Origin: a virus
Lineage: Duplodnaviria; Caudoviricetes
Virus record (IMG/VR): IMGVR_UViG_3300037313_001869
Span: 256,001-320,000 of that record
Length of the DNA: 64,000 nt
Strand: one strand, 5' to 3'
Shown here: piece after piece, positions 3,203 to 50,083 of the stretch
How positions within the stretch are numbered: position 1 is the first letter of the stretch
Layout: every line of letters begins with the position of its first letter
Notes under the pieces: model-generated
The model's input: only the letters and a program-made list of their open reading frames with translations
Told to the model about the DNA's origin: nothing
Database searches by the model: none
Position numbers and translations under genes: made by a program

Positions 3203-4156
3203 TAAGACGCCCGAAAAGACAGTAACGATCGCGGTTTTGACGTGAAAAGACAGGTTGATGTACGAGCTATCGTACCGGTCTTCGAGCTTCTTCAGCTCAC
3301 CGGACAGCCTCGCCCACGTCGCCTCGGAAGATCGCGCACGCATCTCGGCTAGACCCCCACGAATGTCGTGGTTGAACACGCGATCAGGGTCGAGGGGAAG
3401 GACGAGAAGGTCATGGGCGAGGAATCGAAGAAACCGGAGGGCAAGCGGCAGGTCTTGAACGATCTCATCAATCGTCGCGAACGAAGAAGACACGTCTCCC
3501 TCGACGCCGTATTTCAATACACTTAGAACACGGTCGCGGAGGGTGAGTCGGCTCGCGCCCCAGTAACGAGTGGCGCGTCCCATCGAACCTTCACCCATCC
3601 TCCCATAGACAAGAGCTTTATCGCCGTCGGGCTCGACCGCACTCAGTCTGGAAATGATGAATGGTGTCGGTAGTTTACGGAAGGGCACCCGGCCGCAACG
3701 CGAGCGAATCGTATTGAGAACCCTGTCGTATCGTTCCGCGAGAAGAAAGAAGCGAGACCGAGCCGGGGGCTCCTCCAAGGTCTTCAGAAGAGCGTTGGCT
3801 GCTGCGGCCGTCATTCGGTCGGCGCCGTCTACGATGAAGAAGCGGTAGGGCGAGGCGGTGGGGTAGAGCTGCGCCCGGTCGACCACCTCCCGCGCAGCCT
3901 CAACGCCGATCTCCTTCTCGCTCGGAGCCGTGACGTAGAGCACATCCGGGTGAACTCCGCGAGCGATTTGCACGACCTCGGGTGCCTTTGGCCCCCCACG
4001 GTCAGCGGCGACCATCTCCTTGATCGTCTCGTAGACCGCGAAGCGTCGGCCCGTGCCCTCCTCCCCGACAAGGAGCAGAGGCGAGACGTACTTGCCCTCG
4101 ATGACCCGTCGCAGAATCGCAACGGCCTCGTCTTGGCACTGGACCTCACTCAGCAC
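3203..4156 (-). CDS. holB: DNA polymerase III delta' subunit; ends at in-frame TTA
   Basis: HPDV, ADRMTAAAANALLKTLEEPP, TIRSRC; TTA at 3205-3203 is 4 nt before the holA ATG (standard code extends it to 3155). Confidence 0.88.
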
Positions 4157-4307
4157 GGGGCTTGTCCGGCAGGGCGAGCGGAGCCTTCGGGGGCACCGGT
4201 TCGATCGTCAGCCGGACGAAGTAGTTCTGACCGCACTTGTCGCATACCAGTCGATACACCTCTTGCCCGCTCGGGATGAGGTGACCGGCGCACTTCAGGC
4301 ACAGCAT
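4146..4307 (-). CDS. small zinc-ribbon protein
   Basis: CLKC...CDKC. Confidence 0.55.
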   Translation of the reverse strand: MLCLKCAGHLIPSGQEVYRLVCDKCGQNYFVRLTIEPVPPKAPLALPDKPRAE

Positions 4308-4347
4308 CAAGATCGTGTCGGACACGCCGGAAAGCCCCCGAGGTGGA

Positions 4348-4572
4348 TCAGAACGGGAAGAAGCCGCCGACCTCGACGGACCACGAGTTGTGGCACTCGA
4401 CGCACTGGTAGATGCGCTGGTGAGAGGCACCAGTGGGGGTCTTCGACGGCAGAACCTCGACCACCTCGCGCGAGTCGCACCCCTCCATCTTGCATCGCAT
4501 CGCGATGGTCTTCGGCTTGGCGGGCTCGGGCTGAGAGAGGCCGGGCTGGAGGCCCTTGGGATCGACGCTCAT
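4348..4572 (-). CDS. small zinc-ribbon protein
   Basis: CKMEGC...YQCVEC; coupled to upstream ORF. Confidence 0.65.
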   Translation of the reverse strand: MSVDPKGLQPGLSQPEPAKPKTIAMRCKMEGCDSREVVEVLPSKTPTGASHQRIYQCVECHNSWSVEVGGFFPF

Positions 4573-4958
4573 AGGTTGCTCCTAGGAAATGAGGTGGTGA
4601 AGAGGCCGGAGAGTACCGCGAGCGTTCGCCTATAGAGGTCCTGGTCGCGGATCGGGACGAGGGCGACCTCGTTCTGAAAGAAGGGGTCTAGGGAATACAC
4701 CGGGGAGACGGGTACCCGAATCGGGTCGAGCGTCCCGTCGAGGAAGTAGGGGAGGATCTGCTGCCAGTCCTCGCCCCGAACGATCGCGTTCACCCCAGGG
4801 CCCGTGAGCCGCACGAAGGCGCGGTCCTTCTCCTGGCCCGTCGAGATCGTCACGGTCTTCCGCACGACCCCGACGATCGCCCGAGCAAGCTCCGGCAGAT
4901 CCTCGGCCGTCAGCCGTTCGAGCCGGAGTCCCCGGCGAGAGCGCAAGCGTTCGTCCAC
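4569..4958 (-). CDS. hypothetical protein
   Basis: 129-aa ORF with ATGA overlap into next gene. Confidence 0.6.
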   Translation of the reverse strand: MDERLRSRRGLRLERLTAEDLPELARAIVGVVRKTVTISTGQEKDRAFVRLTGPGVNAIVRGEDWQQILPYFLDGTLDPIRVPVSPVYSLDPFFQNEVALVPIRDQDLYRRTLAVLSGLFTTSFPRSNL

Positions 4959-5165
4959 GCTCTAGCCGGGGCATAACAGCTTTACGAGAAGAGCAGCACG
5001 ATCGCGCACGTCATGAACACTCCGACGAAGATGCCCGCCCCGAGACCGTGCTGGAAATCGCTCATGCCCGCAAGCCTCTCACGGTAAGGGCGTGTGGGAC
5101 AAAAAAGGAGAGGCCGGCGCCCTCCCTTCAGGGAGAGGCCGGCCTCGGGAGGTACCCGCTCGGGC

Positions 5166-9716: not shown

Positions 9717-10146
9717 GGTCGCTCCCGAGCTTCTTCACGATGACGCTCCGCTCGGCGTCGGAGAGCTTGCCAAGAGCCTTCTGAAGGATAGCGTCCTCGG
9801 CGTCCTTCACGAGAACCGCCGAAACCCCCACGGAAAGCTCCCAGCCCGTCTTCCCATCGGCGGTGAGGACGTAGACGGCGCGGGCCGAGCCGTTGGACCC
9901 GTACCAACCCTTGCCGCGCCCCATCTCAAGGGCCTCTTCCTCGCTCCGGAAGTAGCCGAAAAGCTCGCTCCTCCGGTCGTCCACGTCGATGTCCGACCGC
10001 CACCACTGCTCGACGCGGTAGTGGGTGAGGGGGTGGTTCAGAGGGATCGGAAAATCACTGGGTGGCATGGCTCTCCATGACACCAGATCCCAGAGGAGAG
10101 CAGGCGACTCGAACGCCACGCCCGCAAAGGCGCCCTTCGTTTTCAA
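9703..10146 (-). CDS. hypothetical protein (start uncertain)
   Basis: ORF in operon orientation. Confidence 0.5.
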
Positions 10147-10170
10147 GACGATGCCCCGGCCCTGCGGGGT

Positions 10171-10605
10171 TTACTCTCCGGAAGTCTTGCGCTTTTTGGG
10201 TGTACCGAGTCCGAGCGACATGGGAAACCGCACGCGCCAAAACCGCGCGATCGTCCAGTCGAGCTGCTTCTTCTCGGGCCCCAGATCAGCAAACAAGACG
10301 ATGGCCCGATTGGCGTCGACCTCGGCAAAGAAGTCGATCTCGGGCGGACGGTACCCATGCCCATCGCACGAAAAAAGCGTCGGGATGTCTGCGTCGAGGC
10401 AGCGCTTGACCAAAGGGGCGATGCCCGGGTCGAGGTGTGGCCCGAGCTTCTCCCACGGCCAGCGCCGCATCCAATACTGCCGGATCTGGGGGTCAGCCTT
10501 CTCCGCGTCGGAGAGAAGCTGGCAGGGGTACGACGAGCAAGCCGGACGGCGACCGCAAATGTAGCAGTATTCAAGCGGCCGAACGATGATCCGGTCGAGC
10601 TTCAT
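10171..10605 (-). CDS. hypothetical protein
   Basis: Cys motifs and TLFSCDGH. Confidence 0.55.
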   Translation of the reverse strand: MKLDRIIVRPLEYCYICGRRPACSSYPCQLLSDAEKADPQIRQYWMRRWPWEKLGPHLDPGIAPLVKRCLDADIPTLFSCDGHGYRPPEIDFFAEVDANRAIVLFADLGPEKKQLDWTIARFWRVRFPMSLGLGTPKKRKTSGE

Positions 10606-10692
10606 GGCGGAAGGTGGAGAACTCGAATCCCAGACCCTTGCGGGCCCCATTTCGCTTCCAACGAACGCCCCGCCCTGCGGGGTTCACCTTCC
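10605..10692 (-). tRNA. tRNA-Ser(GGA)
   Basis: cloverleaf with long variable arm, loop TTGGAAG, CCA. Confidence 0.85.
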
Positions 10693-10739
10693 AAAGAGAC
10701 AGAGGGCCCGGCCCAAAGGACCGGGCCCCACGCCTACCC

Positions 10740-12332
10740 TAACCAGCGCGTGCGGCGCTTGCCCAGACGGGGCTGCTGCTTCAGAGGCAGCGGCGCCGGC
10801 TCGGGCGGGATCAGGTCGGCACCAGACGAGAGCGGCGAGGAGCTACCCAGGCTCACTCCGAGCGCCCCGAGGCTGAGGTCGGGGTGCGGCGTCACGGTAC
10901 CCACCGACCCGAGCCCAAGATCGGGCGGGGTGACAGGCTCCACCGAAACCAGCCGGACCGGCTCGGGCGTAGGAGTGGGTACCGGGCCCGTGAAGGTCGA
11001 GGTCATCACCTCCTGGGCCGAGTTCGAGACGGCGTAGTTGGCGCTGAGGAGCACCTTCTCGTCCTCGGCCGAGAGGCGCGAGGCCGACACGCCGCGGTTC
11101 ATGGCCCGGCGCATCCCCTGGCGGCTGCCGACGGTCTGGGTGTAGACGCCCGGCAGACCGTACATGCCCCCGAGGTGCGAGGCGACGCCGGCCACGGCGT
11201 CGAGACCGCGGGTCTGGAAGTCGGCCTGCACGACGTTGAAGGCAGCCTGCGCAGCCTGGAAGTCGCCCTTCTCGGCCGCCTTCTCGGCGGCGATCTGAGC
11301 CTTGACGAGCTGGGCGCGGGCCACGATCTCGTCGACCTCCTTCGAGGCTTGCTTCTGCTCCTCGCCCGAACGGACGAACTGCACCTTGGCCTTCGACTCC
11401 TCGGCCCGCTTGTCGACCGACCCGTCTTCGGCGAGGGTCTCGTAGCGGACCTTGACCGAGAAGGCGTTGACCGCCCTCGGGCCCGGCTGCTTCTGGGCCG
11501 CGAGCTTCACCCGGAGCACGAGGTGCTGGGTCTCTTCGGCGAGCAGGGACGGGACCTTGATCGAGACCTCGCCGTCGACCTCCTCCTCGACGTTCACGTC
11601 CGAGAGGACCTCGGCGATCTGGTGGCCGTTCGAGGGGGTCACGTCGATCGTGATCGACTGGGCGTAGGTCGAGAGAAGCCCGCCCAGCTCCTTGCCGAAG
11701 GCGGCGAGGGCCTGATCGGGGTCTTCGATGTAGGCGTAGTTGCCCTCAGCCTTGCCGGCGAGAGCGTTCAGGAGCCCCTGATCGGCATCGCGGCCGTAGC
11801 CGAACGCCGAGACCGAGACATGACCACGGCTCTTCTCGACCAGAGCGCAGAGGCTCGCCTGGTCCTTGGCGATGCCGTGGGTCGGCTGCCCGTCGGTCAG
11901 CATGATGATGCGCGTGAGGGTACCGGCCCCAAGGTCGAGCTGCTTGGCCACTTCGAGGGCCTTCAGCATCCCGTCCGAGAAGTTCGTCCCGCCCTCGATG
12001 TTGATACGGCCGATGGCGAGCTTCAGCTCGTCCTTGCGGGCCTGGGTCATCTCGACCGGATGAAAGTCGACGCGGCCGGCGTCGGAGAAGGTGACGAGCC
12101 CGCCGTAGTCGCCCGGCTGGAGCTGATCGATGAGCTTGATGGCCGACTGCTTCGCGTAGGCGAGCTTCGGACCCCGCATCGACCCCGAGATGTCGATGAC
12201 CGGGATCACGCAGACCCGCGAGCGCTTCTTCTGCCAGTCGATGGCCGGCGCCGTGAGGCTGACGACGAGGTGGGCCTCGGTGTCCTTGTCGAACGCGACC
12301 TGATCGTGCGAAAACTGAGCGTGGATTTTCAT
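10740..12332 (-). CDS. von Willebrand factor A domain protein; ends ...KRRTRW-TTA
   Basis: MIDAS DISGSM, GGTN, LTDG; TTA two codons before TAG. Confidence 0.85.
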
Positions 12333-12553
12333 GGTGGGGATTCCTTCAAGAGGTACGGAGGTTCGCCGAGGTGCGGACGGTGGACGGCCATCCCAAACCA
12401 GAGCAAAATCGCAGCGTCCGGGGCCCGACCCAAGCCGAAGCGCGGTCGAACCTTGAAGGAACCCAAGCTTACGCGCGGTCCCATGAGCACCTATACACCA
12501 GCCAAGCAAGCCGTGCCAGTCGGATCGTGATCTTCTAATCGACGAGGTCCAGC

Positions 12554-12802
12554 ATGGGACGACTCAGGAAACTAATCCGCGAACGCCTCGGCCAGGCGAC
12601 CAGCAATCGCGAGACCTTGGTGACGTGTGAGTCGTGCCAGGGTTCGGGTATGGTCGTGGTCGAGACCCCCGCCGGCTACCGAGGGACGCAATGCGTCTGG
12701 TGCCACGGCGGGGGCTTCGCCCTTCGTGAGGTCAACTACGCCTATGCCCGCTGGCGTCGGATCAAGCTCCGGAACCAGCGGGCAGGAGCGTGTGGCAGCT
12801 TA
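12554..12802 (+). CDS. DnaJ-type zinc-finger small protein; ends at TTA
   Basis: CESCQGSG and CVWCHGGG; TTA 12800-12802 is the complement of the HNH TAA. Confidence 0.65.
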
Positions 12803-13384
12803 CGAGTTCTGCGCCTCCCCCTCCCCGGGGGAGCTGCCGAGCAGGTAGACGCCGCCACCGGCCTTCTGCGAGGCGTCGATGTTGAGGTACGGCACCCAGA
12901 CGGGCGGCACCGAGCGCGTCTCCAGGAAGACCGCGTGCAGGGGCAGGACGTGGGGTTTCGCCGGCCTCCGGAGCAGGCTCATCTTCGCCTGCTCGGGCGT
13001 CCTTCCGCCCTTCTTGTCGTTGCACGGGTAGCAGCAGGTCACGATGTTCTCCCACACCGTCCTTCCGCCCTGCCGGCGGGGGATGACGTGGTCGTAGTTC
13101 AGCTCCCGCATCGTCTTCTTCGCGCCGCAGTATTGGCACCGGAAGCCGTCCCGGGTGAAGACGTTGATGCGCGAGAACTTGACGCCCTTCTTGTGCCCCA
13201 CGACCGGCTTCTTCAGCAGGATGACGGCCGGCACGTAGAGCGTGACCGAGGGCGACGACACGGTCTCCTCGTACTCTTCGAGCACCGTCACCTTGTTCTC
13301 GTACACGAGGCGGATCGAGTCCTGCCACGGCACGATGGCGTGTGGTTGGTACATGTGGTTCAGAAGCAGCGTCCGGGTCTCCAT
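12800..13384 (-). CDS. HNH endonuclease (McrA-like)
   Basis: RDGFRCQYCG, DHVIPR, WENIVTCCYPCN. Confidence 0.9.
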   Translation of the reverse strand: METRTLLLNHMYQPHAIVPWQDSIRLVYENKVTVLEEYEETVSSPSVTLYVPAVILLKKPVVGHKKGVKFSRINVFTRDGFRCQYCGAKKTMRELNYDHVIPRRQGGRTVWENIVTCCYPCNDKKGGRTPEQAKMSLLRRPAKPHVLPLHAVFLETRSVPPVWVPYLNIDASQKAGGGVYLLGSSPGEGEAQNS

Positions 13385-13549
13385 CGCGTCCTACCTTCGT
13401 CTCCGCTTACGCATAGGGGGTGGGTTCTTTCAGGGGGCCCGCCTGGGGGGCCGGGGGAGGTGTAGAGGTCTCTCCGAGAACCAAGACACCTCTCACCAGA
13501 GGTGCCGGCCTTAGAAGGTTCTTCAACCCTCGCCGAGAGGAGACGATCG

Positions 13550-13867
13550 ATGCCGAACCCGTCTGACAGGGCCATCGCCCAGTACCCCCACTGCGATCAG
13601 CGCGTCCTCCATGCCCCCGGAGAGTGCCGCTACTGCGACGAGCACCCAGACTGGCAAGAGCTGCGAAGGACCTGGAACATCAACTTCACGGGCAAGAAGG
13701 AGCCGGGCAAGAGCCCCTGCCCCGCCGAAGCGAGCCGGACAGCTCGGACCATCCACGAGTGGCACGGCAACCGGCCGACTGAGGTGGAGGTGGACCTCAC
13801 CGAACCGGACAGGTACGTCCGCATCCTCGACGCCGAGACCGAGGGCACCGAGAACGGGGGCCGCTGA
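13550..13867 (+). CDS. hypothetical Cys/His-rich protein
   Basis: AGGAG SD; PHCDQRVLHAPGECRYC. Confidence 0.65.
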   Translation: MPNPSDRAIAQYPHCDQRVLHAPGECRYCDEHPDWQELRRTWNINFTGKKEPGKSPCPAEASRTARTIHEWHGNRPTEVEVDLTEPDRYVRILDAETEGTENGGR

Positions 13868-13912
13868 AACGAGAAGAGGGGCCGGCCCAGGAAAGGCCGA
13901 CCCCTCTTTGTG

Positions 13913-14439
13913 GGTGGAGATGCGCGGAATCGAACCGCGGTCCGTGAGGTGAGAAATCGAGCCTGCTACGTGCGTAGTCTCTCGCGGGCCCGAAGGCCCC
14001 ATCCAGAAGAGACAGTCCGGCCCGGCACCAGATTTTGCGCCGGGCTAACTCTATCTCAGACGCGAGACAGCAAGCGACTGACCGTCAAAGAATCGGGCCC
14101 TGCGCCGCCGGAGCCTGGCTCCCGCGTCCTATCCGTAACGCCAGCCGAGACGTGCCACCAAGGTCGCCCCTGGGTTCGTGCCGACTAGCCCTTTTACAAT
14201 GTGTCTCGTTCCCGAGGCCCCACGGCGAACCCCAGGCTACCAGCCCTTGTCGTTTGGTCGTCCCCATCCCGGCTACCAGGGCGATCTCACCCAGGACGAG
14301 TATCCTCTAAGGCCGCGAGGGCCGGCGAGGCGGCGAAGTTGTCGTTCGCAGGTGTGGTTGCCCCGTTGTTCAAGGCGGGCTGGGCGCCGCCTGCACGCAA
14401 ACTCGATCGATCACCCCCCGTCGAAACCATTTCATCCCC
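13913..14439 (-). ncRNA. ssrA: tmRNA, enlarged (~527 nt), tag ANDNFAASPALAA-TTA
   Basis: 5' GGGGATGAAATGGTTTCGAC; 3' GGTTCGATTCCGCGCATCTCCA with G3.U70; tag reading frame 14349-14311. Confidence 0.93.
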
Positions 14440-14493
14440 GGGGGTCTTCTCTCAAATACACCAGACCGAAGGGAGGCGCAAGAGGCGCCGACC

Positions 14494-14578
14494 GGTGCGG
14501 GAAGGGGGACTCGAACCCCCATGCCCAAGGGCCGCCAGGTTTGAGCTGGCGCTGTCTGCCGGTTCCAAGCATTCCCGC
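14494..14578 (-). tRNA. tRNA-Leu(CAA)
   Basis: loop CTCAAAC, long variable arm. Confidence 0.88.
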
Positions 14579-14618
14579 GAAACAACTATTTGTGCAAGGG
14601 ACTCTAGCGGAGATCCCC

Positions 14619-15320
14619 ATGCGCTACAACTACGATCGCCGCGCCAACGAGAACGAGCCCCAGTCCGTCGAGGCGACCGTCGAGGTCGAAGCGGCCGGCA
14701 AGAAGAAGCACCCGCACATCGTGGTCATGAACCGCGCCCTCGTGAAGCTCAAGCCGAAGTACGAGCAGTACCTCGCCAAGCTCTTCGGCGAGTCGTGGCA
14801 TGTCTCTGCCTACGAAGAGAGGATGATGGACTCGATCACCATCTCGGCCAGCTCCCCGATCAAGGCTGGGGGGTCGTGGGCGCTGGAGATTCGAGTGTCC
14901 CCCGAGGCGACCTGGAACCTCAAGGAGGACTCCAAACCCTTCTTCAGCGGGTGGGTGACCTTCACCGACCCGACCAAGCACCAGAGGGCCGAACGCCGCC
15001 TGAATGACACGCTCCCGGAGCAGTTCACCCCCGAGAACATCCTCGGCCCCATCGCCGACCGGATGAAGGCGGCCTACGGCGGCAGCGTCGACAAGGAGAC
15101 CGACGAGGTCAAGGAGTCGATCGAGAAGTGCCGCGAGAGCCTCGTCGAGGTGAGCTTCGCCCTCGACCAAGCCGAAAAGGCCATGGCCAAGGGCGACCTC
15201 AAGGCTGTCCTCGACGACCTGTCGAAGACCCTGCGGACGGTCAGCCGCTCCGCCTCGGATATCGAGAGCGAAGCGCTGCACACGGCCCAGATGCTCGAAA
15301 AGCTCCAGCAGCTCAAGTTA
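14619..15320 (+). CDS. hypothetical protein; ends at TTA
   Basis: MRYNYDRRA...LEKLQQLK then TTA opposite a convergent TAA. Confidence 0.7.
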
Positions 15321-38297: not shown

Positions 38298-39452
38298 TCA
38301 GCCGGCCTTCATCTTGTCCTCGACGAGCGCCTGAAGCTCGCTCGCGTGCTGGACGAACTGGGTGACCATCTGCATCCGGCCGACCTGCACCACCGAGGAC
38401 GAGAGGTGGATCGAGAGGTTGTAGAGACGCTCGGCCTGCTGCCGGACCTCGTCGGCGATGGGCGAGTGCTTGTAGAGGTTGGCGAAGCCGCCGATCTCGC
38501 TCGTGAGCTGGTAGACCGTCTTGCTCGACACGCCCATGCCGCTCGTCGCAAGGTCCCTCAGGGTCGTGTTGGCGTCGCCGAAGTCCTTGATGAGCGAGGC
38601 GAACTTCTCCTTCAGCTTCGCCGCGATCTCCTTGTCCCTGGTCTTCAGGAAGCCCCGCAGGACCGAAATCACCGTCTCGTGCAGCTCGCCGAAAGGGTTC
38701 TTCCCGTGACCGATGAGGTCGAGGGGAGGCGTCGTCAGAACGGTCTTGTAGAGGTTCGAGACGCGCGTGAGCCGGGCCTTCGGGGCCGCGAGCCCGATCG
38801 AGGTGAGGTCGGCGCCGAGGTCCTTGATGTGCCCACCGAGCTTGCGGATCTCCCGCTTGACGGCGCCTTCGGCGTCGTGGGCCTCGGCCCAGAGATCCTC
38901 GGACATGTCGACGAGGCGCGTGGTCTTCTTTTCGAGCAGCTCGTAGGGCGTCTTGTCGACGAAGTCCGGGTCGAGGTTCTTCGGGGCCCGCTGGATGCTC
39001 CCAAGGGCGGCGAGGTAGTGGCTCGTCGGTACCTGGGCGAGCTGCGAGTAGAAGGTCCAGGAGTGGTTGTCGCCGCTTCGCGAGTAGGAGATCGACCCGG
39101 CGTTCATCTTCTGGAGGTCCTCGTGCAGGTCCTTCATGAACTTGAGCGCCTTCGCCAGGCTGTCGTTGACATGGGCGAGGGTCGAGATCCCTTGCACGTC
39201 CTCGGCCGCCTTGATGGGCTCGGCGAGGTCCTTCGCGGCTTCCTTCGTCAGGATGGGCTTGTCGGTCCGGCCGAAGTGCTTCTTCCAGAACTCCGAGTAG
39301 ACCGCCCTGGCCTCCTCGATCTTGTCCATCTGGGCGCCGAACCCGATCGAAGCCGCCTCAGCGACGCGGACGCTGGCGAGACGGTGCCTCGCGGCGATGA
39401 CGTAGCTCTGACGGACGAGGGTAGCTTGCTCTTTCGCGACCTTGCTCGGCAT
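38298..39452 (-). CDS. helical hypothetical protein (RVAR-like N-terminus)
   Basis: 384-aa ORF, strong GC3 codon bias. Confidence 0.75.
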   Translation of the reverse strand: MPSKVAKEQATLVRQSYVIAARHRLASVRVAEAASIGFGAQMDKIEEARAVYSEFWKKHFGRTDKPILTKEAAKDLAEPIKAAEDVQGISTLAHVNDSLAKALKFMKDLHEDLQKMNAGSISYSRSGDNHSWTFYSQLAQVPTSHYLAALGSIQRAPKNLDPDFVDKTPYELLEKKTTRLVDMSEDLWAEAHDAEGAVKREIRKLGGHIKDLGADLTSIGLAAPKARLTRVSNLYKTVLTTPPLDLIGHGKNPFGELHETVISVLRGFLKTRDKEIAAKLKEKFASLIKDFGDANTTLRDLATSGMGVSSKTVYQLTSEIGGFANLYKHSPIADEVRQQAERLYNLSIHLSSSVVQVGRMQMVTQFVQHASELQALVEDKMKAG

Positions 39453-39484
39453 GGTACCTGGTAAGGCGCGATAGAAACAGTCTC

Positions 39485-39558
39485 GGTCAGCCTGGCGGGA
39501 ATCGAACCCGCTGCCTCTTCGTCCCCAACGAAGCGCGCTACCGATGCGCTACAGGCTG
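39485..39558 (-). tRNA. tRNA-Pro(GGG)
   Basis: loop TTGGGGA. Confidence 0.88.
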
Positions 39559-39584
39559 ATGGTGGCCCCGAAGGGCCGAGACGG

Positions 39585-39932
39585 TCACGGCTTCTGCGCA
39601 AGCCCGAGAAGGGCGATGCGGGCCTCGTCGATGTCGCAGACCGCCTTCTCGAAGTACGCCTTCGACTTCTCGGCCGTCGCGCGGGTCTTGGCGAGGTCAC
39701 GTTCGGTCTGGGTGATGAACGAGGCGGCAAGCCCCCTCGCGGCCTCCTCCAGATCGGGCCCCTCTCCCTGGCAGTAGAAGACCGCCCCCACGTCGCCCTC
39801 CTCGGGGCGCATCGTGACGAGAAAGACGCTGTCCTTCGCGACGAAGGAGACGCCAAAGCGGAACTTCCGGCCCGAGTACGCCTTGTGGGCCTGCTCGGAG
39901 AGGGTGCGGATCACGGTGTCGATGAGCGCCAT
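39585..39932 (-). CDS. hypothetical protein
   Basis: CGGTGTA-N10-ATG. Confidence 0.65.
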   Translation of the reverse strand: MALIDTVIRTLSEQAHKAYSGRKFRFGVSFVAKDSVFLVTMRPEEGDVGAVFYCQGEGPDLEEAARGLAASFITQTERDLAKTRATAEKSKAYFEKAVCDIDEARIALLGLAQKP

Positions 39933-39952
39933 GGGCGCCTTCTACACCGATC

Positions 39953-40028
39953 GGTGGCTAGGGCCGGAATCGAACCGGCTACACCCGGATTTTCAATCCA
40001 GTGCTCTACCAGAATGAGCTACCTAGCC
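39953..40028 (-). tRNA. tRNA-Phe(GAA)
   Basis: loop TTGAAAA. Confidence 0.9.
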
Positions 40029-40035
40029 GTAGATT

Positions 40036-40168
40036 CGTAGCGACAAGGGGCGACAAGACCGTTTTTACGCTGGCTACCGTTACCACACCCCGCGTCAGGT
40101 TGCGGGGCCGGGAGTCGAACCCGGGCTTCGTCCTTGAAATGGTGGAGTCCCATCAGGCATTCGCTACG
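40036..40168 (-). ncRNA. Y-RNA-like ncRNA 4 with permuted tRNA-like domain
   Basis: CGTAGCGAATG..GGACTCCAC; CCGGGTTCGACTCCCGG; CCCCGC/GCGGGG looped stem; CTTGTCGCTACG. Confidence 0.75.
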
Positions 40169-40245
40169 GTGGGTCGTCCCGGGATCGAACCGGGTTCTTC
40201 GGCTTTTCAGACCGACGCTAAGATCACCAGACCAGCTCACGACCC
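40168..40245 (-). tRNA. tRNA-Phe(GAA)
   Basis: loop CTGAAAA. Confidence 0.85.
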
Positions 40246-40251
40246 GTTACA

Positions 40252-40408
40252 AGCGTCCAACAAGGGGGGTGCCCAGACACATGACCCCCACGAACCCGGC
40301 TTTCACCCCGGACGAAGGGGACACCCCCACCTGAACCATCGAGCAGGGAGGAAGGTTTGCTCGCCGGTTCAGGTGGGGGCGTGTAGTCCAAACGTGTATT
40401 CGGACGCT
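40252..40408 (-). ncRNA. Y-RNA-like ncRNA 5 (long hairpin cargo)
   Basis: AGCGTCCGAATA..GGACTACAC ... CTTGTTGGACGCT. Confidence 0.7.
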
Positions 40409-40410
40409 CG

Positions 40411-40485
40411 TGGCACGGCAGGGGGGAATCGAACCCTAGACCTTCCGGAGTTTTGGAGGCTCCGTTACACCCTGTGTTCTGCCGT
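40411..40485 (-). tRNA. tRNA-Trp(CCA), atypical D arm
   Basis: loop CTCCAAA, GCCA. Confidence 0.75.
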
Positions 40486-40490
40486 AAAAG

Positions 40491-40754
40491 TTATGACTTC
40501 TGCTTCTCGAACTTGATGCTGGCGTACGTCCCGAGGAAGCCGCCCACGGCGGCTGCCAGAAGGGTCCTCTTGTCGTGCATGACGAGGAGCATGTTCGTGC
40601 CCGCGAGGAGCACGATGCCCGACGAGATGAGCGAGGCCCGTACGGCCTTCTTCTCGGCGGTGGCGATGATGTACGCGGCCCAGGCCGCATCGACCACGAT
40701 TGCCACCGCGAACGCCAGAGCGAACGGCCAAGAAGACTCTACCCAACCAGGCAT
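40491..40754 (-). CDS. small membrane protein
   Basis: three hydrophobic segments, GGFLGTY. Confidence 0.65.
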   Translation of the reverse strand: MPGWVESSWPFALAFAVAIVVDAAWAAYIIATAEKKAVRASLISSGIVLLAGTNMLLVMHDKRTLLAAAVGGFLGTYASIKFEKQKS

Positions 40755-40783
40755 CCCCCAAAGCTACCACGAACCTGAGGTAG

Positions 40784-40866
40784 GGCTCGACAATGAAGGT
40801 GAGAGACCTTGGCCTAGGCGTTACCCCAGGTACCCTAACAGGTGGAGTCCCTCTTGCATTCGAGCC
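40784..40866 (-). ncRNA. Y-RNA-like ncRNA 6 (minimal)
   Basis: GGCTCGAATG..GGACTCCAC ... ATTGTCGAGCC. Confidence 0.7.
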
Positions 40867-40867
40867 A

Positions 40868-40940
40868 GGCGCGGAGGCAGGACTTGAACCTGCAACCTTC
40901 GGGTTATGAGCCCGACAAGCTACCATTGCTCCACTCCGCA
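40868..40940 (-). tRNA. initiator-type tRNA-fMet(CAT)
   Basis: GGG/CCC anticodon stem, loop CTCATAA. Confidence 0.87.
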
Positions 40941-41013
40941 GCGCCTCGTGGGGGTTTCGATCCCCCTTCAGCCCCTTGAAAGGGGGCCATCCTAGCCAGT
41001 AGACGAACGAGGC
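40941..41013 (-). tRNA. tRNA-Glu(TTC)
   Basis: loop CTTTCAA. Confidence 0.85.
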
Positions 41014-41358
41014 TCAGGTCTTCGGCCGGCGCCGCTCGAACTCCCGGATCTTGTGGCAGTTCGAGCAGACCAGCTCGCACTTTTCGATCTCTTCGACCAG
41101 AGCCTCCAAGGACGGGGCCGCGTAGGCGTCACCGACGTTGAAGAGCTTGGTCGAGGGGTCGACGTGGTCGAACTCCAGAACGTACACCGGCCACTGGTAC
41201 TCGCAGTCGGTGCAGAAGGGGTTCTCCCTCTTCAAGGTCTGGACGAACTCCCGGACCGCCTCGACCAGCTCGTCCTTGCGAAAGGGCCGCGTCGAGGCTC
41301 GAAGGAACTTCCGACCTTGGAGGGTGTTACCTCGGCCGGGGCGTCGCTTGCGCTGCAC
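41014..41358 (-). CDS. HNH endonuclease-like protein (start uncertain)
   Basis: CTDC..LEFDHVDP..KCELVCSNCH. Confidence 0.75.
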   Translation of the reverse strand: MQRKRRPGRGNTLQGRKFLRASTRPFRKDELVEAVREFVQTLKRENPFCTDCEYQWPVYVLEFDHVDPSTKLFNVGDAYAAPSLEALVEEIEKCELVCSNCHKIREFERRRPKT

Positions 41359-41381
41359 ACCCAAGCCGGACGATAAGAGAA

Positions 41382-41446
41382 GGAGCGACAAGCCGTTTGC
41401 CTAGAGAGACGTTTGTAGAGGTGTACTCCAGGCTTTCATTCGCTCC
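41382..41446 (-). ncRNA. Y-RNA-like ncRNA 7 (minimal)
   Basis: GGAGCGAATG..GGAGTACAC ... CTTGTCGCTCC. Confidence 0.7.
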
Positions 41447-41447
41447 A

Positions 41448-41523
41448 GCGATCCCAGCGGGATTTGAACCCGCGTTGTCCGCGTGAGAGGCGGGCGTCCT
41501 AGACCGGGCTAGACGATGGGACC
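41448..41523 (-). tRNA. tRNA-Glu(CTC)
   Basis: loop CTCTCAC. Confidence 0.9.
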
Positions 41524-41700
41524 AAGATACCCCGGCGGGCTTTTACCTCCGCCAGGGCGGCACAAGCTCGAAGCGGTCACTTCGAGGGTCCTCCCCGCTA
41601 GGGGCGTGCTTTGGACCTAGGAGCAGGGTTGTAACACCCGCTCACGAAGACGCAAGAAAAAAGCCCGTGGGCGACTCTCAGGGGTCTTCGTCTAGGGAAA

Positions 41701-41767
41701 GGATCGACAAGGGGACGGGCAAGACCGGTACTTTTTCATGGTGTAGTCCTGACCCAACATTCGATCC
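41701..41767 (-). ncRNA. Y-RNA-like ncRNA 8 (minimal)
   Basis: GGATCGAATG..GGACTACAC ... CTTGTCGATCC. Confidence 0.7.
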
Positions 41768-41843
41768 GGTTGCGGGCACGGGGAATCGAACCCCGCTGTC
41801 TCCGGCGTATGAAACCGGCGTAGAAGCCGCTTTACTCGCCCGC
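41768..41843 (-). tRNA. tRNA-Met(CAT)
   Basis: loop TTCATAC. Confidence 0.78.
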
Positions 41844-41844
41844 A

Positions 41845-41914
41845 GCACGTCCAGAAGGAATCGAACCCTCGCCGCCGGAGTTGGAAACCGGTTGGTCACC
41901 TTGACCTTGGACGT
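41845..41914 (-). tRNA. tRNA-Trp(CCA)
   Basis: loop TTCCAAC, short D arm. Confidence 0.78.
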
Positions 41915-41961
41915 AGATGCCCTCCGAGACCCAAGGTACAGAACCAGAAGTCCCGGAAGGA

Positions 41962-42046
41962 GTGGGCCGCCAGGGAATCGAACCCTGCTAGTCCGCGAAG
42001 GACGACACGTTTACAGCGTGTTTGAGCTTCCAAGCTCCCGCGACCC
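41962..42046 (-). tRNA. tRNA-Tyr(GTA)
   Basis: loop CTGTAAA, long variable arm. Confidence 0.85.
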
Positions 42047-42094
42047 GAATGACCCCCTTGCGGGGGTGGAGTTGAATCGGCCCCCTTGGGGACC

Positions 42095-42169
42095 GGAGCT
42101 GGCGATGGGAGTCGAACCCACCTGGTCCTCTTTACGAAAGAGGTGCGCTCCCACGAGTGCTACACCAGC
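42095..42169 (-). tRNA. tRNA-Thr(CGT)
   Basis: loop TTCGTAA. Confidence 0.87.
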
Positions 42170-42223
42170 ATTCACCGGGGCTGCAACCCCGGGCCATCGT
42201 ACCGTTGCAGCAGTACGACAGCA

Positions 42224-42296
42224 GAGCCCCGTCCCGGAATCGAACCGAGTTTTCCGCGTTACAAAGGCGGCGCCTCACCATTTAGGCGTAAGGGGC
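42224..42296 (-). tRNA. tRNA-Thr(TGT)
   Basis: loop TTTGTAA. Confidence 0.83.
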
Positions 42297-42390
42297 AATC
42301 AGCTCCCGTAAGGGAGCGGCCCTGCGCCCGAAGGAGCAGGGGGTGAGAAGTCAGCACCAGTCCCTAACTTCATGAAGGACCGAATGCCTA

Positions 42391-42464
42391 GCTCCGAGGG
42401 AGGGAGTCGAACCCCCGCTGACAGAAGTTAACAGCTTCTCGCTCTACCGCTGAGCTACCCCGGA
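42391..42464 (-). tRNA. tRNA-Asn(GTT)
   Basis: loop CTGTTAA. Confidence 0.9.
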
Positions 42465-42471
42465 ATGACTG

Positions 42472-42642
42472 TAAAGAACACTGACCGGTCGACCACTTGG
42501 GGAGGTCGGGACGGTCGGGGACGTACACGAGCGCCTCGTCGTCGGGCAGCTCCTCGATGAGCACGTCATCGAAGGGCACGCCGAACGCCGTAGCATACTT
42601 CCGCCGCAGCTTCGCGGCTTCGGTTCGGCAGTTGGCGCTCAC
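42472..42642 (-). CDS. small hypothetical protein; ends at TTA just before tRNA-Asn
   Basis: AGGAGG SD plus GTG; TTA at 42474-42472. Confidence 0.55.
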
Positions 42643-42687
42643 CCCCCTCCTAGACACCGGAGGGGGCGGGACTCTGACAGAGATTTT

Positions 42688-42903
42688 TCAGGCGTCGCCA
42701 CGGGCCGCGCCAGGAAAGCGCAGAGCGTGGGAGTGCTTGGCGAACTTCTCGCCGAAGAGGGTCTTGATCATCCAGTAGTCCTCGGCCCTCTCGGCCGCCT
42801 CGCACTCGGGGCAGCCCTTCATATGCTCGACGTGGGCAAGGATCTCCTCGTCCGAAGAGGTGGCAGTCGGGGCGGGGTAGGTGCAGGGAGCGATGGTCTT
42901 CAT
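42688..42903 (-). CDS. small Zn-finger (anti-sigma ZAS-like) protein
   Basis: HVEHMKGCPEC. Confidence 0.5.
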   Translation of the reverse strand: MKTIAPCTYPAPTATSSDEEILAHVEHMKGCPECEAAERAEDYWMIKTLFGEKFAKHSHALRFPGAARGDA

Positions 42904-42964
42904 GCCCCATCAGTCGCAAGAACCCCCGCCGAGATTACACCCCTCGGTCGATTTTTCTCTGCCG

Positions 42965-43041
42965 TGGCTGTGGGGGTAGGAGTCGAACCTACGGAATCGC
43001 GGTTAACAGCCGCGCCGATGTACCGGCACATCAGCCCCACA
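42965..43041 (-). tRNA. tRNA-Asn(GTT)
   Basis: loop CTGTTAA, GCCA. Confidence 0.83.
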
Positions 43042-43269
43042 AAAAGAGAGGCTCGCCCCCGCCTCACGGCGGAGACAAGCGCCCTCCCGGACCCGGTGTT
43101 ACCCAGGCCCTTCTTTCTTGTAAACCATGCAGGGGAGGTGCGTGCTCCTGCCTGTCTCGCCCGCTGGAGCCCCCAGTAGAGTCGGGGTCGATCACCGCAA
43201 CGAGACGTTTCGGCCCTAACCCCCCAAACGGGGAGCGTCGGTGGCCGTGGCAAGCCGTCCTAGCCCTGT

Positions 43270-43286
43270 CAGATTGTCAAAGGTCA
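43270..43286 (-). promoter_or_regulatory. boxA-like antitermination site
   Basis: TGACCTTTGACAATCTG resembles rrn boxA; lies near the 5' end of the tRNA array. Confidence 0.5.
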
Positions 43287-43311
43287 GTCCCCGCGCCCGA
43301 AGGAGGGGGAG

Positions 43312-43387
43312 TGGAACCAGGAGCACGACTCGAACGCGCCTTCCGAGGGTCAGAACCTCGTGTCTTTGCCGGATAGACGATCCTGGT
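43312..43387 (-). tRNA. tRNA-Gln(CTG)
   Basis: loop TTCTGAC, CCA. Confidence 0.82.
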
Positions 43388-43402
43388 AGATGCAAACGCT
43401 GA

Positions 43403-43477
43403 TGGTCGGGGGCACGGGAATCGAACCCGCCTCTCTCAGGTTAAGAGCCTGCTGCGTCACCTTGACGCCAACCCCCA
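43403..43477 (-). tRNA. tRNA-Lys(CTT)
   Basis: loop CTCTTAA, CCA. Confidence 0.83.
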
Positions 43478-43485
43478 ATAGGGTC

Positions 43486-43559
43486 GGTGGGACGCACCAG
43501 AATCGAACTGGCCCCTTGAGGATTAAAAGTCCCCTGCACCACCTTGGTGCTAACGTCCC
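43486..43559 (-). tRNA. tRNA-Lys(TTT)
   Basis: loop CTTTTAA. Confidence 0.87.
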
Positions 43560-47935: not shown

Positions 47936-47957
47936 GGCCCGGGAGGCTAGCACACCC

Positions 47958-49187
47958 TCAGCGGCAGCGGGCCGTCAAGGTCCAGCCGGCGTGCTTGAGC
48001 CGGTGGCTGTAGACCTCTTCGAGGGCGTCCTTCACCTTGTTCTTGAAGACCTTCTGCCAGAAGGGCTGCAAGATCGGCCCCTCGCCCTTCTGCTCACGAT
48101 GCTTTTCGAGCATCGCCAGGAAGGGCAGCTCCTTGTTGTGGAGGATCTCGCCGTCGCTCTTGTTGTCGAGCAGCATATCGAAGTAGAGGGGCAGGTCCTT
48201 GACCATCTGCTTGCGAATGTCGGCGGGGATCTCCCGCTTGCCGCCCGCCTCGTCCGACAGGTCCTCGAAGAACTCGGTCGCCTGCGACAGCTCGATGATG
48301 AGCGACGAAGGCTCGCTCGTCAGGGCATCGAGAAGGGGGTGAAGCAGAGCGAGCACGCCGGTCTTGCGCGACCGAGAGAGGTCGACGGTCTTGCCCGACG
48401 GCACCTTCTTCAGGATCTTCGAGAGGGCCGGGTCCTGGAGCGTGCGGAAGGCAAGCGGGTAGCTCTTGCCGTTCACCTTGATCGAGACCTCCCGAGGGTT
48501 CTTGACCGTCAGCTCGATCTTGGGCGCGTCCGGCCGGCTCGCGTCGACCTGGCTGAGCAGGTCGTCGATCTCGCTCACGCTGAGCGCCTTGCTCAGATTC
48601 TCGCGGACCTCGTCGAGCCGCTCCTCGCTCATCACGTCGTCGAGGTAGCCCCACTGGTTCGGGTCGGCGATGACGCGCTCGACGTTCTTCCCCTCGTCGT
48701 CCGTCTCGGTCATCGACACGTCTCGGTCCTGGCTCCGGAGGATGTCGAGCGCCCGGTTTTGCATCGACCGGAGCGTGTAGCCCTGCGCCTGAGAGAGGTT
48801 CTTGCCCTTCAGGCCCGCGAGAAACGAGGCGTTCTCCTGGGGGTCGAACATCTTGAGGAGCAGCTCCATCACGACCTCTTCGGCGAGGTCGGGGTTCCGG
48901 AACTTGGCGAGCAGGGCCTTGTAGACCTTGTTGCCGAAGTCCCTGGCCTCCGACCCTCCGTAGGTCCGGTAGACCTTCTGGATGTCCCGGACCTCCTTGA
49001 TCGGCTTCGCCGGCTCGGGCATCCCCTCGACCCCCGCGAGGTAGAAGTAGCCGTAGAGCACGCCCCCGAGGTCGTGCTGGATCGACGACAGCTTGACGAG
49101 GAGGTTGGCAAGACGGTAGCCCCACGGGAGCGAGGCGTAGACCTTGCGGCGGAGGTTTTCGGCGGCGGCAGCGAGGCGAAGGGACAT
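47958..49187 (-). CDS. sigma70/ECF region-2-like protein
   Basis: DLAEEVVMELLLK...YTLRSMQNRALDILR. Confidence 0.55.
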   Translation of the reverse strand: MSLRLAAAAENLRRKVYASLPWGYRLANLLVKLSSIQHDLGGVLYGYFYLAGVEGMPEPAKPIKEVRDIQKVYRTYGGSEARDFGNKVYKALLAKFRNPDLAEEVVMELLLKMFDPQENASFLAGLKGKNLSQAQGYTLRSMQNRALDILRSQDRDVSMTETDDEGKNVERVIADPNQWGYLDDVMSEERLDEVRENLSKALSVSEIDDLLSQVDASRPDAPKIELTVKNPREVSIKVNGKSYPLAFRTLQDPALSKILKKVPSGKTVDLSRSRKTGVLALLHPLLDALTSEPSSLIIELSQATEFFEDLSDEAGGKREIPADIRKQMVKDLPLYFDMLLDNKSDGEILHNKELPFLAMLEKHREQKGEGPILQPFWQKVFKNKVKDALEEVYSHRLKHAGWTLTARCR

Positions 49188-49244
49188 GTCAAAATCGTCC
49201 CGCGGATAAGTACAAATTTGCCAGCCCCGGTGTAGCCTTCGAGC

Positions 49245-49775
49245 ATGGCGAACTACGGCTACGTCCACATGAAGAAGAAGCTCAAGCGAGACGAGATGCT
49301 GCCTCTTCTGCGCGAGACGATCGCGAAGATGCTGCCCGGGCCGTGGGAGGTGAAGGAGACCGACTGGGACGACGAAGGCCCGGTGTGGTTCGTCTTTCTG
49401 CCCGGCACGGCCCAAGACCGGGAGGGGGCTCGCAAGATGGCCCTCGCCCCGGGGCAGGACGTAGGCTTCCCGGTCGCCCTCCAGGGCGGAGGCAAGCGGC
49501 TCGCCTTCCGGCACATGATCAACTTCTTCGAGTCCTGGGCCCAGGGCCGGATCGAGGAAGAGCTGGGCGAACAGTTCGGCGTCGGCGTCGAATACGACGC
49601 GACCGACGAGACCTACGCGCCGACCCGGCGCGAATACCGCCGGGGCAAGACCTACTTCGAGTACCTCTCGCGCAATTTCGACAAGCCCCTGTCGAAGGAG
49701 GACGAGGAGTTTCTGAACGGCCGCTTCCGCGAGATGGCCCCGCCCGGCTTCTGGCGTGGCGAGGAGTTCGGCTGA
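49245..49775 (+). CDS. hypothetical protein
   Basis: CGGTGTA-N10-ATG. Confidence 0.75.
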   Translation: MANYGYVHMKKKLKRDEMLPLLRETIAKMLPGPWEVKETDWDDEGPVWFVFLPGTAQDREGARKMALAPGQDVGFPVALQGGGKRLAFRHMINFFESWAQGRIEEELGEQFGVGVEYDATDETYAPTRREYRRGKTYFEYLSRNFDKPLSKEDEEFLNGRFREMAPPGFWRGEEFG

Positions 49776-50083
49776 TGGCCCTGATGACCCCGATCGAAAA
49801 CGTCCTCGGCGATCAGCTCGAAGCCTGGGCTGACCAGTATGTCCGGCTCTTCCGGGACGTTCGCGGCCAGGCGGGCATCGTAGGCATCCACCGGGCGAGG
49901 CTCGGGCCGCAGACGCGCACCTTCACGGGCGAGTTTCGCTACCACGTCTGGGAGAACGAGCGCTGGGCTGTCTACGTCTCCTCGACCCGGGGCGCGTGCT
50001 TCCATGTCCCTGAAGGCACTTCGGCCCAGGACGCCTTGCGTGCCTGGGCCGAGTACGAAAAGAAGCTTCGGAACAAGGGCTAA
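49775..50083 (+). CDS. hypothetical protein
   Basis: TGATG coupling; MALMTPIEN. Confidence 0.65.
   Translation: MALMTPIENVLGDQLEAWADQYVRLFRDVRGQAGIVGIHRARLGPQTRTFTGEFRYHVWENERWAVYVSSTRGACFHVPEGTSAQDALRAWAEYEKKLRNKG

Follow-up and report, generated by a model that had tools for sequence, protein, structure and literature searches.

The window analysed here is a stretch of 64,000 nucleotides, bases 256,001-320,000 of a 435,218-bp contig from a phage of the Caudoviricetes (IMG/VR virus record IMGVR_UViG_3300037313_001869), in which the leucine codon TTA very probably serves as a fourth stop codon. The contig has a GC content of 64.8%, contains direct terminal repeats and is rated complete. The window contains 43 of the 44 tRNA genes in the genome, every one of which is located on the minus strand and none of which has the anticodon UAA according to ARAGORN, along with genes for a GroEL-like chaperonin, the clamp-loader subunits holA and holB, a protein with a vWA domain, and DNA methylases. 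Comparisons were made with a related complete phage genome of 407 kb and 57.8% GC, referred to as G001, for which the whole sequence was compared, and with the relatives G003, G004, G005, L020, L021, and L022.

An initial annotation of the window had proposed that TTA acts as a stop codon and had listed 11 in-frame TTA codons, each placed at the natural end of a protein. The sites, including the one in the transfer-messenger RNA (tmRNA), and the genes and open reading frames (ORFs) next to them were as follows, in window coordinates:

3203..3205, minus strand: TTA ending a holB-like gene (DNA polymerase III delta' subunit), with the ORF starting from 4156 and PF13177 on 3206-4156
10740..10742, minus strand: TTA ending the vWA-domain gene (10743-12332/12509), with VWA Pfam matches and an orthologue in G001
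12800..12802, both strands: TAA of a well-supported minus-strand gene (12800-13384) and possible TTA of a weak plus-strand Zn-ribbon ORF (12554-12802)
13912-14439, minus strand: tmRNA of the phage (Rfam RF00023, 78.8 bits, E = 6.6e-29), with TTA at 14310-14308
15318..15320, both strands: two-way stop, TTA of a plus-strand gene (14619-15320) and TAA of a minus-strand gene (15318-16169)
16170..16172, minus strand: TTA ending a 649-codon ORF (16173-18119), with the ATG of gene 15318-16169 directly next to it in the same frame
21867..21869, minus strand: TTA ending gene 21870-22469, abutting tRNA-Arg(UCU) at 21789-21866
27531..27533, both strands: two-way stop, TTA of a plus-strand gene (27255-27533) and TAA of a minus-strand gene (27531-27806)
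30284..30286, minus strand: in-frame TTA of a short ORF upstream of tRNA-Ala(GGC), a doubtful gene end
42472..42474, minus strand: TTA ending a small gene (42475-42642), 7 nt before tRNA-Asn at 42391-42464
50081..50083, both strands: two-way stop, TTA of a minus-strand gene (50081-51067) and TAA of a plus-strand gene (49775-50083)

All 11 trinucleotides were found at the positions and in the frames given in the annotation, and the placement at a natural protein end was supported for 9 of them and doubtful for those at 12800 and 30286, which belong to weak ORFs. The sites were studied with a six-frame codon model trained on 91 long ORFs, with which the coding frame was scored 120 nt before and after each site. 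The frame read into the TTA lost its coding signal at the codon with strong support at 15318 and 27531 on the plus strand and at 16172, 21869, 42474, and 50083 on the minus strand. At 15318, the model placed the coding signal in frame +0 upstream (21 bits) and in frame -0 downstream (22 bits). The support was moderate (8.7 bits) at 3205 on the minus strand, where the frame signal switched to the frame of holA.

The holB TTA was separated from the ATG of holA at 3198 by the 4 nucleotides TCCG, as had been described, and the 2 genes were spaced identically in the L021 phage, but with a standard stop codon. The TTA of the vWA gene was located 2 codons ahead of a TAG, also as described, and this site alone says little; the orthologue in G001 aligned up to the last residue before the TTA and had a TGA at exactly the TTA position. 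Under translation table 11, the 649-codon ORF and the gene at 15318-16169 are joined into a single ORF of 933 amino acids, and no relatives of the 649-amino acid protein were identified among viral contigs. Likewise, the gene at 21870-22469 is extended by 31 codons through tRNA-Arg(UCU) under table 11. This tRNA gene touches the TTA at 21867 with no gap, rather than the 1 nt reported previously.

With regard to the 2 doubtful sites, the Zn-ribbon ORF at 12554-12802 lacked a clear coding signal and matched DnaJ_CXXCXGXG only below the threshold, while at 30286 a coding signal was detected on neither side by the six-frame model and the ORF was not called as a gene. It was also noted that the TTA codons at 15318, 27531, and 50083, as well as the one at 12800, double as the complement of the TAA of a convergent gene, a point that is absent from the initial annotation.

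TTA at the ends of genes across the genome

The sites of TTA, of the 3 standard stops and of several rare sense codons in the whole genome were sorted according to whether the model detected a coding signal only upstream of the codon or on both sides of it:

TTA: upstream only 60, both sides 4
TAA: upstream only 42, both sides 7
TAG: upstream only 76, both sides 9
TGA: upstream only 286, both sides 30
CTA: upstream only 54, both sides 44
TGT: upstream only 64, both sides 70
AGT: upstream only 45, both sides 77
AAT: upstream only 55, both sides 109

The distribution for TTA was not distinguishable from that of the pooled standard stops (404 upstream only versus 46 on both sides; Fisher p = 0.50), whereas it differed from that of the pooled rare sense codons (342 versus 302; Fisher p = 9e-12). 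Each of the 4 TTA sites with a coding signal on both sides was followed by a new start codon, a standard stop 2 codons on, or a convergent gene. The TTA frame was the best upstream coding frame at about 53 of 57 sites, and rare codons other than TTA accumulated downstream of TTA, where a coding-like stretch was present in only 5 of 51 cases, as compared to 43 of 72 cases for CTA. Since CTA and TCA, which are the complements of TAG and TGA, had no such effect, the pattern observed for TTA is not a by-product of stop codons on the opposite strand. An artefact of shadow ORFs, in which TTA would be the mere complement of an opposite-strand TAA, was considered and was rejected by the six-frame sense/antisense model.

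Genes were called with a simple caller that used either the stops of table 11 or the same stops plus TTA, a comparison that had been suggested in the initial annotation. The four-stop code yielded more genes, 605 versus 570 with 3 stops, and about half the overlap, with the number of doubly covered bases dropping from 6,241 to 2,883. The 605 genes ended with TGA (386 genes), TAG (91), TTA (68, about 11%), and TAA (60), which bears out that all 3 standard codons are still used as stops. TTA stops were about as frequent as TAA stops, and TTA is hence not a codon that is missing from reading frames and gene ends alike. The genes that ended with TTA included those for RecA (L013:9005-10273, minus strand), ClpX (L006:3238-4575, minus strand), the vWA protein, and the holB-like clamp-loader subunit. 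TTA stops were most common in the conserved minus-strand core, with 13 of 41 genes at genome positions 200-240 kb, and rare in the plus-strand arrays of paralogues.

At 13 of 51 convergent junctions, the 2 genes overlapped by exactly 3 bases, which serve as the TTA of one gene and as the TAA of its partner. Such a two-way stop made of a single trinucleotide is possible only in a four-stop code. Overlaps of stop and start codons of the form TTATG also occurred, which fits termination by the ribosome rather than the ends of mRNAs. Under table 11, by comparison, the ORFs ran antisense through neighbouring genes, into tRNA genes, or across 2 proteins, as had been stated for the window, with extensions of up to 1,271 codons. 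The codon statistics of the sequences beyond TTA were those of non-coding sequence, with rare codons piled up.

About 88 genes encode proteins with R[FY][DE][RKH] at the C-terminal end, in most cases with 4 further residues before the stop codon, and this motif was used as a ruler for gene ends. TTA was present at the stop position in 6 of the approximately 88 genes, one of which, in a tandem array of paralogues, ends with ...RFDREGPL before the TTA and is extended by 415 codons under table 11. The motif, with the 4 residues mostly of the form [ED]-x-[VP]-[LIV], represents a C-terminal tag common to small proteins that are otherwise unrelated or hypervariable, for example at L018:2315-2929 (plus strand) and in an array at genome positions 385648-402313.

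Orthologues in G001 were identified for 35 of the 68 genes that end with TTA, and for 25 of these the alignment stopped no more than 15 residues short of the C-terminus. The median offset between the standard stop in G001 and the TTA was 0 codons, with offsets of at most 5 codons in 19 of the 25 genes and an exact coincidence in 10, and the distribution of the offsets was similar to that for genes ending with TGA, TAG, or TAA. In-frame TTA codons, when mapped against the ends of homologue alignments as originally suggested, thus coincide with these, often falling exactly on the orthologous stop. In the gene at genome positions 250988-251863, for example, the TTA aligned with TGA or TAG in 4 relatives and with TTA in L021. 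The RecA of our phage ends with ...GGAE before the TTA. The 13 homologues of RecA, with sequence identities of 55% to 63%, ended in acidic tails, at most a few residues away from the TTA position, and none of them contained the 40-codon Ser/Arg-rich extension that follows the TTA under table 11. Homologues that share the post-TTA extensions had been named in the annotation as evidence that would speak against TTA stops, and none does.

Internal TTA codons were searched for in reciprocal tblastn alignments to G001, which covered more than 54,000 interior aligned conserved codons. There was no true in-frame internal TTA among these codons, and the 14 TTA trinucleotides observed inside alignments were all either located in off-frame shadow alignments or upstream of the start codon. 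For contrast, conserved positions contained 74 CTA, 47 ATA, 161 AGA, and 502 TTG codons. The earlier observation that in-frame TTA codons are lacking inside genes, made by a manual scan of the window, holds genome-wide.

The tag frame of the tmRNA reads ANDNFAASPALAA and is followed by the TTA at 14310-14308. As had been noted, this is the codon next to ...PALAA, here in a bona fide tmRNA tag frame. The next standard stop in the frame is located 7 codons past the TTA, such that a table 11 reading of the tag adds 7 residues and loses the ALAA end. The tags of the tmRNAs in G001, G003, and G004 are similar, and end with ...AA followed by TGA at the position that aligns with the TTA. ARAGORN called the tmRNA genes of G001 and G004, but missed the tmRNA gene of this phage, for which a tag frame with no standard stop at the expected place may be the reason. 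Genomes with TTA stops may systematically lose tmRNA calls.

Relatives, tRNA sets and release factors

A search with RecA led to syntenic jumbo phages that belong to one clade and have contigs of up to 470 kb. The six-frame model had too little power on the short loci of these relatives, and orthologue alignments were used in its place. Most of the relatives read TTA as leucine. In L022 (55.5% GC), 15 in-frame TTA codons were located inside genes, of which 9 aligned with a leucine in our phage, with the homology continuing beyond the codon. Approximately 20 relatives in IMG/VR likewise read TTA as leucine, as does G001, in which the codon is rare.

The same usage of TTA as in our phage was observed in 2 relatives. 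In L021 (454 kb, 56.5% GC; a Logan contig from SRR26324626 that corresponds to NCBI GCA_040384025.1, JAWVHG010000027.1), all 8 in-frame TTA codons in 18 genes were located at orthologous gene ends. One of these aligned with the stop of the RNR gene in L020, one with a stop in L022 and the TTA of our phage, and one split a 501-amino acid "gene" that is 2 genes in 3 relatives. About 40% of the proteins in the L021 region end at TTA. In L020 (a JGI contig of 458 kb, 61% GC), only 2 in-frame TTA codons were identified, one at the junction between a RuvC-like gene and recA, and the other at an orthologous C-terminus. The usage of TTA was the same in independent assemblies, and this speaks against errors made in reading or assembling the sequences. 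The public "RecA" of 634 amino acids from the L020 phage (L020:10001-11905, P0024, JGI 3300081839) is a RuvC-like protein and RecA fused through an in-frame TTA.

In a tree inferred from 6 concatenated proteins, our phage, L020, and the pair formed by L021 and L022 branched near each other, with L021, in which TTA is a stop, as the sister of L022, in which it is a sense codon. A clade of the 3 TTA-stop phages together with L022 was not rejected (p = 0.24).

The tRNA genes in the window, all of which are on the minus strand, include 3 for leucine:

10093..43559, minus strand: tRNA array of 43 genes (ARAGORN)
14494-14578, minus strand: tRNA-Leu(CAA)
37381-37464, minus strand: tRNA-Leu(GAG)
38028-38113, minus strand: tRNA-Leu(CAG)

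A gene for tRNA-Leu(UAA) was not found in the phage genome with ARAGORN, including its relaxed mode, nor was any remnant detected in a blastn search with the G001 tRNA. The leucine tRNAs of the phages compared were as follows, with 2 TTA-stop phages represented, since the L021 contig ends before the leucine tRNAs:

Our phage, TTA stop: tRNA-Leu with CAA, GAG, and CAG
L020, TTA stop, complete array of 35 tRNAs: tRNA-Leu with UAG, CAA, CAG, and GAG
G001, TTA sense: tRNA-Leu set includes UAA
G003, TTA sense: tRNA-Leu set includes UAA
G005, TTA sense: tRNA-Leu set includes UAA
G004, TTA sense: tRNA-Leu(UAA) absent from the 38 kb read

A tRNA-Leu(CAA) that reads only UUG, with no reader of UUA, is what a code with UUA as a stop needs. 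The genes for several tRNAs that read codons ending with A, namely Leu(UAA), Leu(UAG), Ile(UAU), and Val(UAC), are gone in our phage, which has the higher GC content, while G001 has retained them in an array (64156-77220) that is largely syntenic. The slot after Glu(UUC) is occupied by Leu(UAA) in G001 and by a tRNA with the anticodon CAU in our phage.

Outside the window, at genome positions 331929-332021 on the minus strand (L103:1013-1105), the phage contains a gene for a type-II tRNA(CUA) of 93 nt, which resembles an amber suppressor and has A73 and an encoded CCA. It is flanked by genes for a PTH2 peptidyl-tRNA hydrolase (L103:1471-1791, minus strand) and a "Swiss Army Knife" RNA-repair HAD-domain protein (L103:487-975, minus strand), and G001 carries 2 tRNA(CUA) genes. 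A recoding of TAG, as suggested by this tRNA, was considered and rejected because TAG, TGA, and TAA all behave as stops, and no use for the tRNA was found. At the 9 TAG and 7 TAA sites with a coding signal on both sides, a start codon followed a few codons later, as expected for a stop plus a restart.

To search for a host with a modified release factor 2 (RF2), we scanned 185,579 species genomes for high-GC RF2 genes in which the serine codon before P-F-D had given way to a codon with C or G as its first base. In-frame variants were identified only in 2 metagenome-assembled genomes (MAGs) of Armatimonadia (G-P-F) and in one MAG of Intrasporangium (R-P-F). The Armatimonadia MAGs, G007 and G006, contained Gly-Pro-Phe in place of the conserved Ser-Pro-Phe (L165:3050-3082 and L145:2759-2791), had GC contents of 68% to 71%, and contained no in-frame TTA among about 74,000 core codons. 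No credible gene ending with TTA was found in 362 kb of these genomes, where the sole "TTA end" was located at a scaffold gap, and their tmRNA tags end with TAA or TAG. TAG was the most common stop codon in these MAGs, with 73 TAG versus 43 TGA in 200 kb, which is unusual at high GC content and unlike the phage. There is thus no support for the Armatimonadia MAGs as hosts, which says nothing against other hosts.

Another 9 hits to prfB in "MFD" MAGs were discarded as nanopore indel artefacts, with homopolymer insertions in an ordinary S-P-F region. The extra C, in TCGCC(C)G at the Ser-Pro of S-P-F, was read directly in L153:585-600 only, and 8 other loci (L134, L136, L140, L143, L144, L148, L158, and L160) contained the same shifted-frame peptide pattern. 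The prfB frameshift in the MFD MAGs is most likely a recurrent homopolymer error in long reads, and not biology.

Phage ADP-ribosyltransferases modify host translation proteins. At 61996-63225 on the minus strand, the window encodes a protein of 409 amino acids with a weak match to DRAT ADP-ribosyltransferase (PF07357, E = 1.7e-6), although no link to TTA is implied.

Probable termination at UUA and the alternatives

The frame statistics, the orthologous stops, the gene calls, the absence of internal TTA codons, and the usage in 2 relatives all support the initial proposal of a fourth stop codon. Judged from these sequence data, it is highly probable that UUA terminates translation in this phage lineage beside UAA, UAG, and UGA. 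Several observations weigh against it. No sequence context or motif was found to mark the TTA stops at the 68 sites, and 2 of the 11 sites listed for the window (12800 and 30286) rest on doubtful ORFs. A profile search of the genome, as recommended in the initial annotation, yielded no matches to RF-1, PCRF, eRF1, RF1/RF2, ArfB, or bacterial Pth. The G004 phage, moreover, uses TTA as a sense codon although the 38 kb read contains no tRNA-Leu(UAA), and the phage tRNA set alone is therefore not decisive for the meaning of the codon; host tRNAs also matter, as this example shows. Finally, an exclusive clade of the 3 TTA-stop phages was marginally rejected in the approximately unbiased (AU) test (p-AU = 0.039). 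Since these phages were not recovered as an exclusive clade, either at least two changes of the trait have taken place or the host determines it.

Three alternatives do without a terminator at UUA. If TTA were still translated as leucine, the genes would run to the next standard stop and the extensions would be tolerated junk. Each ORF is in fact open past the TTA under table 11, but the extensions are non-coding by their statistics, run antisense, through tRNAs, or into other proteins, and are common to no homologue. Such a reading, which would also require that 68 genes had lost their stops and the tmRNA tag its ALAA end, appears highly improbable. The initial annotation had also raised a +1 slip of the ribosome on UUA, by which it would meet an overlapping UAG or UAA (T-TAG or T-TAA). 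The base following TTA at the 68 sites was G in 41%, C in 37%, T in 18%, and A in 4% of the cases, of which G and A would permit the slip. No +1 stop is available at the 55% of sites with C or T, some of which align exactly with orthologous stops, and a general +1 slip is thereby ruled out, leaving hardly any probability for this idea. It could also be argued that the true codon is TAA, given that TTA is a single base away from it and that the genome is a metagenome assembly, and that TTA is an artefact of sequencing, assembly, or base modification. But the errors would need to strike stop positions only, and to have done so in 3 independent assemblies from different samples (IMG/VR, JGI, and Logan/NCBI) with the same usage. 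At the 13 shared TTA/TAA sites, moreover, a base change would only shift the TTA to the gene on the other strand. We consider an artefact to be barely credible.

For a codon that terminates translation, the route that we propose begins with the loss of the UUA-reading tRNA, or its absence from the infected cell, by which UUA would be left unassigned and could then be captured as a terminator (codon capture). By analogy with known systems, UUA might be recognized by a bacterial class-I release factor of the RF2 kind in which the second codon base is read loosely, a suggestion for which we hold belief and doubt to be evenly balanced. With no release factor encoded by the phage, an altered factor would need to come either from the host, perhaps after modification by the phage, or from the phage as a protein not recognised as such.

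The main alternative to recognition by a release factor is that UUA is an unassigned, "hungry" codon, at which the ribosome stalls and the finished protein is set free by drop-off of the peptidyl-tRNA and its hydrolysis by PTH2, or by slow near-cognate release through an ordinary release factor. The phage has neither a tRNA-Leu(UAA) nor a release factor gene, and it encodes a tmRNA, ClpX, and a PTH2-family peptidyl-tRNA hydrolase (genome positions 332417-332695), all of which is compatible with stalling. This explanation nevertheless fits poorly, and we regard it as unlikely. Stalling would be slow and costly for 11% of the proteins, or about 40% in the L021 region, including RecA, ClpX, and very large proteins, and drop-off is inefficient for long nascent chains. 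Proteins rescued by the tmRNA would be marked for degradation, and the UUA in the tag frame itself would stall the ribosome again, while the TTATG overlaps and the short distance to the following gene suggest that termination and reinitiation are normal. We therefore favour recognition by a release factor after loss of the UUA-reading tRNA.

The code may also be set by the host, if this is a bacterial lineage that reads UUA as a stop or has no decoder for UUA. Phages that moved onto such hosts would then have brought their genes and their tmRNA into line with them. No release factor gene is present in the phage, TTA-stop phages are interspersed with relatives in which TTA is a sense codon, as illustrated by the sisters L021 and L022 and by the p-AU value, and G004 shows that relatives can lean on a host tRNA for UUA. 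In addition, L021 makes heavy use of TTA stops at a GC content of only 56.5%, and GC pressure on the phage alone hence does not explain the loss of sense TTA. On the other hand, no bacterial genome with TTA stops was found in the literature searched, and the only testable lead, the 2 Armatimonadia MAGs with G-P-F, gave nothing. A code set by the host is on balance a tentative explanation, and somewhat doubtful. It is also conceivable, albeit improbable, that the phage itself imposes the change by removing or inactivating the tRNA-Leu(UAA) of the host, supplying its own near-complete set of tRNAs, including the tRNA-Leu(CAA) that reads only UUG, and redirecting release to UUA by an unrecognised phage factor or a modified host release factor. 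If so, host messages that contain UUA would be cut short and phage genes purged of internal TTA would be immune, such that the code would double as a weapon for host shut-off and as a barrier to expression in the wrong cell.

Known systems and implications

UUA is used as a stop codon in the mitochondria of Thraustochytrium and Labyrinthulea (NCBI table 23), and UUA and UCA in the plastids of peDinoflagellates (PMC12574857). The route proposed for UUA as a stop in the labyrinthulean mitochondria and these plastids is via RF2, in which Ser204 in the codon-binding region is substituted independently in 2 lineages (PMC12574857), and the 2025 report on the peDinoflagellate plastids describes itself as the first sense-to-stop case outside mitochondria (PMC12574857). 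Both UUA and UUG are stops in the mitochondria of some green algae, namely Marsupiomonadales and Pseudoscourfieldia (Pycnococcus) (PMC12574857, PMC6821328). In phages, the recoding reported is from stop to sense, with TAG or TGA read as an amino acid in Lak, crAss-like, and other phages (PMC7886860, PMC8346664, PMC11210395). The initial annotation had drawn on table 23 and on the opposite direction of phage recoding, in agreement with these papers (PMC12574857, PMC7886860, PMC8346664, PMC11210395). A search of the full-text literature yielded no phage or bacterium described as using TTA or UUA as a stop, and sense-to-stop reassignment is so far documented only in organelles.

The table 23 mitochondria and the peDinoflagellate plastids resemble the phage in that the same leucine codon has become a stop in a translation system of the bacterial type, and in that the evidence consists of a codon found only at 3' gene ends defined by homologues. 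The organelles, however, have tiny genomes and a nucleus-encoded RF2 with the Ser204 substitution, whereas the phage genome measures 435 kb, encodes 44 tRNAs, and lacks a release factor gene, and its TTA-stop and TTA-sense relatives are close and syntenic. The mitochondria of Marsupiomonadales and Pycnococcus share with the phage the change from leucine to stop after the loss of the codon from genes, but they use both UUR codons as stops and a modified mtRF1a is implicated, while UUG in the phage is a common leucine codon (about 500 conserved sites) served by tRNA-Leu(CAA). In stop-recoded phages, as in ours, genes are miscalled under table 11 and the tRNA set is large and includes a suppressor-like tRNA(CUA), but these phages have turned a stop into a sense codon, whereas ours has turned a sense codon into a stop and has kept TAG, TGA, and TAA as stops.

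Micrococcus luteus has unassigned codons. In high-GC Actinobacteria, as in the phage, the GC content drives TTA from genes and its decoding hangs on a single tRNA-Leu(UAA), with the TTA codons of Streptomyces being dependent on bldA (PMC10732093). There, however, TTA is a regulated or unused sense codon that closes no genes, as opposed to 68 genes and the tmRNA tag in the phage.

Standard gene callers mis-annotate genomes with TTA stops, as exemplified by the 634-amino acid "RecA", the 933-amino acid fusion, the ORFs that run through tRNA genes, and the missed tmRNA. To our knowledge, a change from sense to stop cannot be called with the tools now available for predicting genetic codes, for instance Codetta. 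For genome recoding and biocontainment, a release system that reads UUA would be attractive. The finding points to a hidden activity for release at UUA, or to hosts from a bacterial lineage that deviates from the standard code, and the syntenic relatives that still read TTA as leucine provide a natural experiment on the loss and recapture of a codon. A phage lineage with UUA as a stop would carry the sense-to-stop change of the genetic code into the bacterial and viral world.

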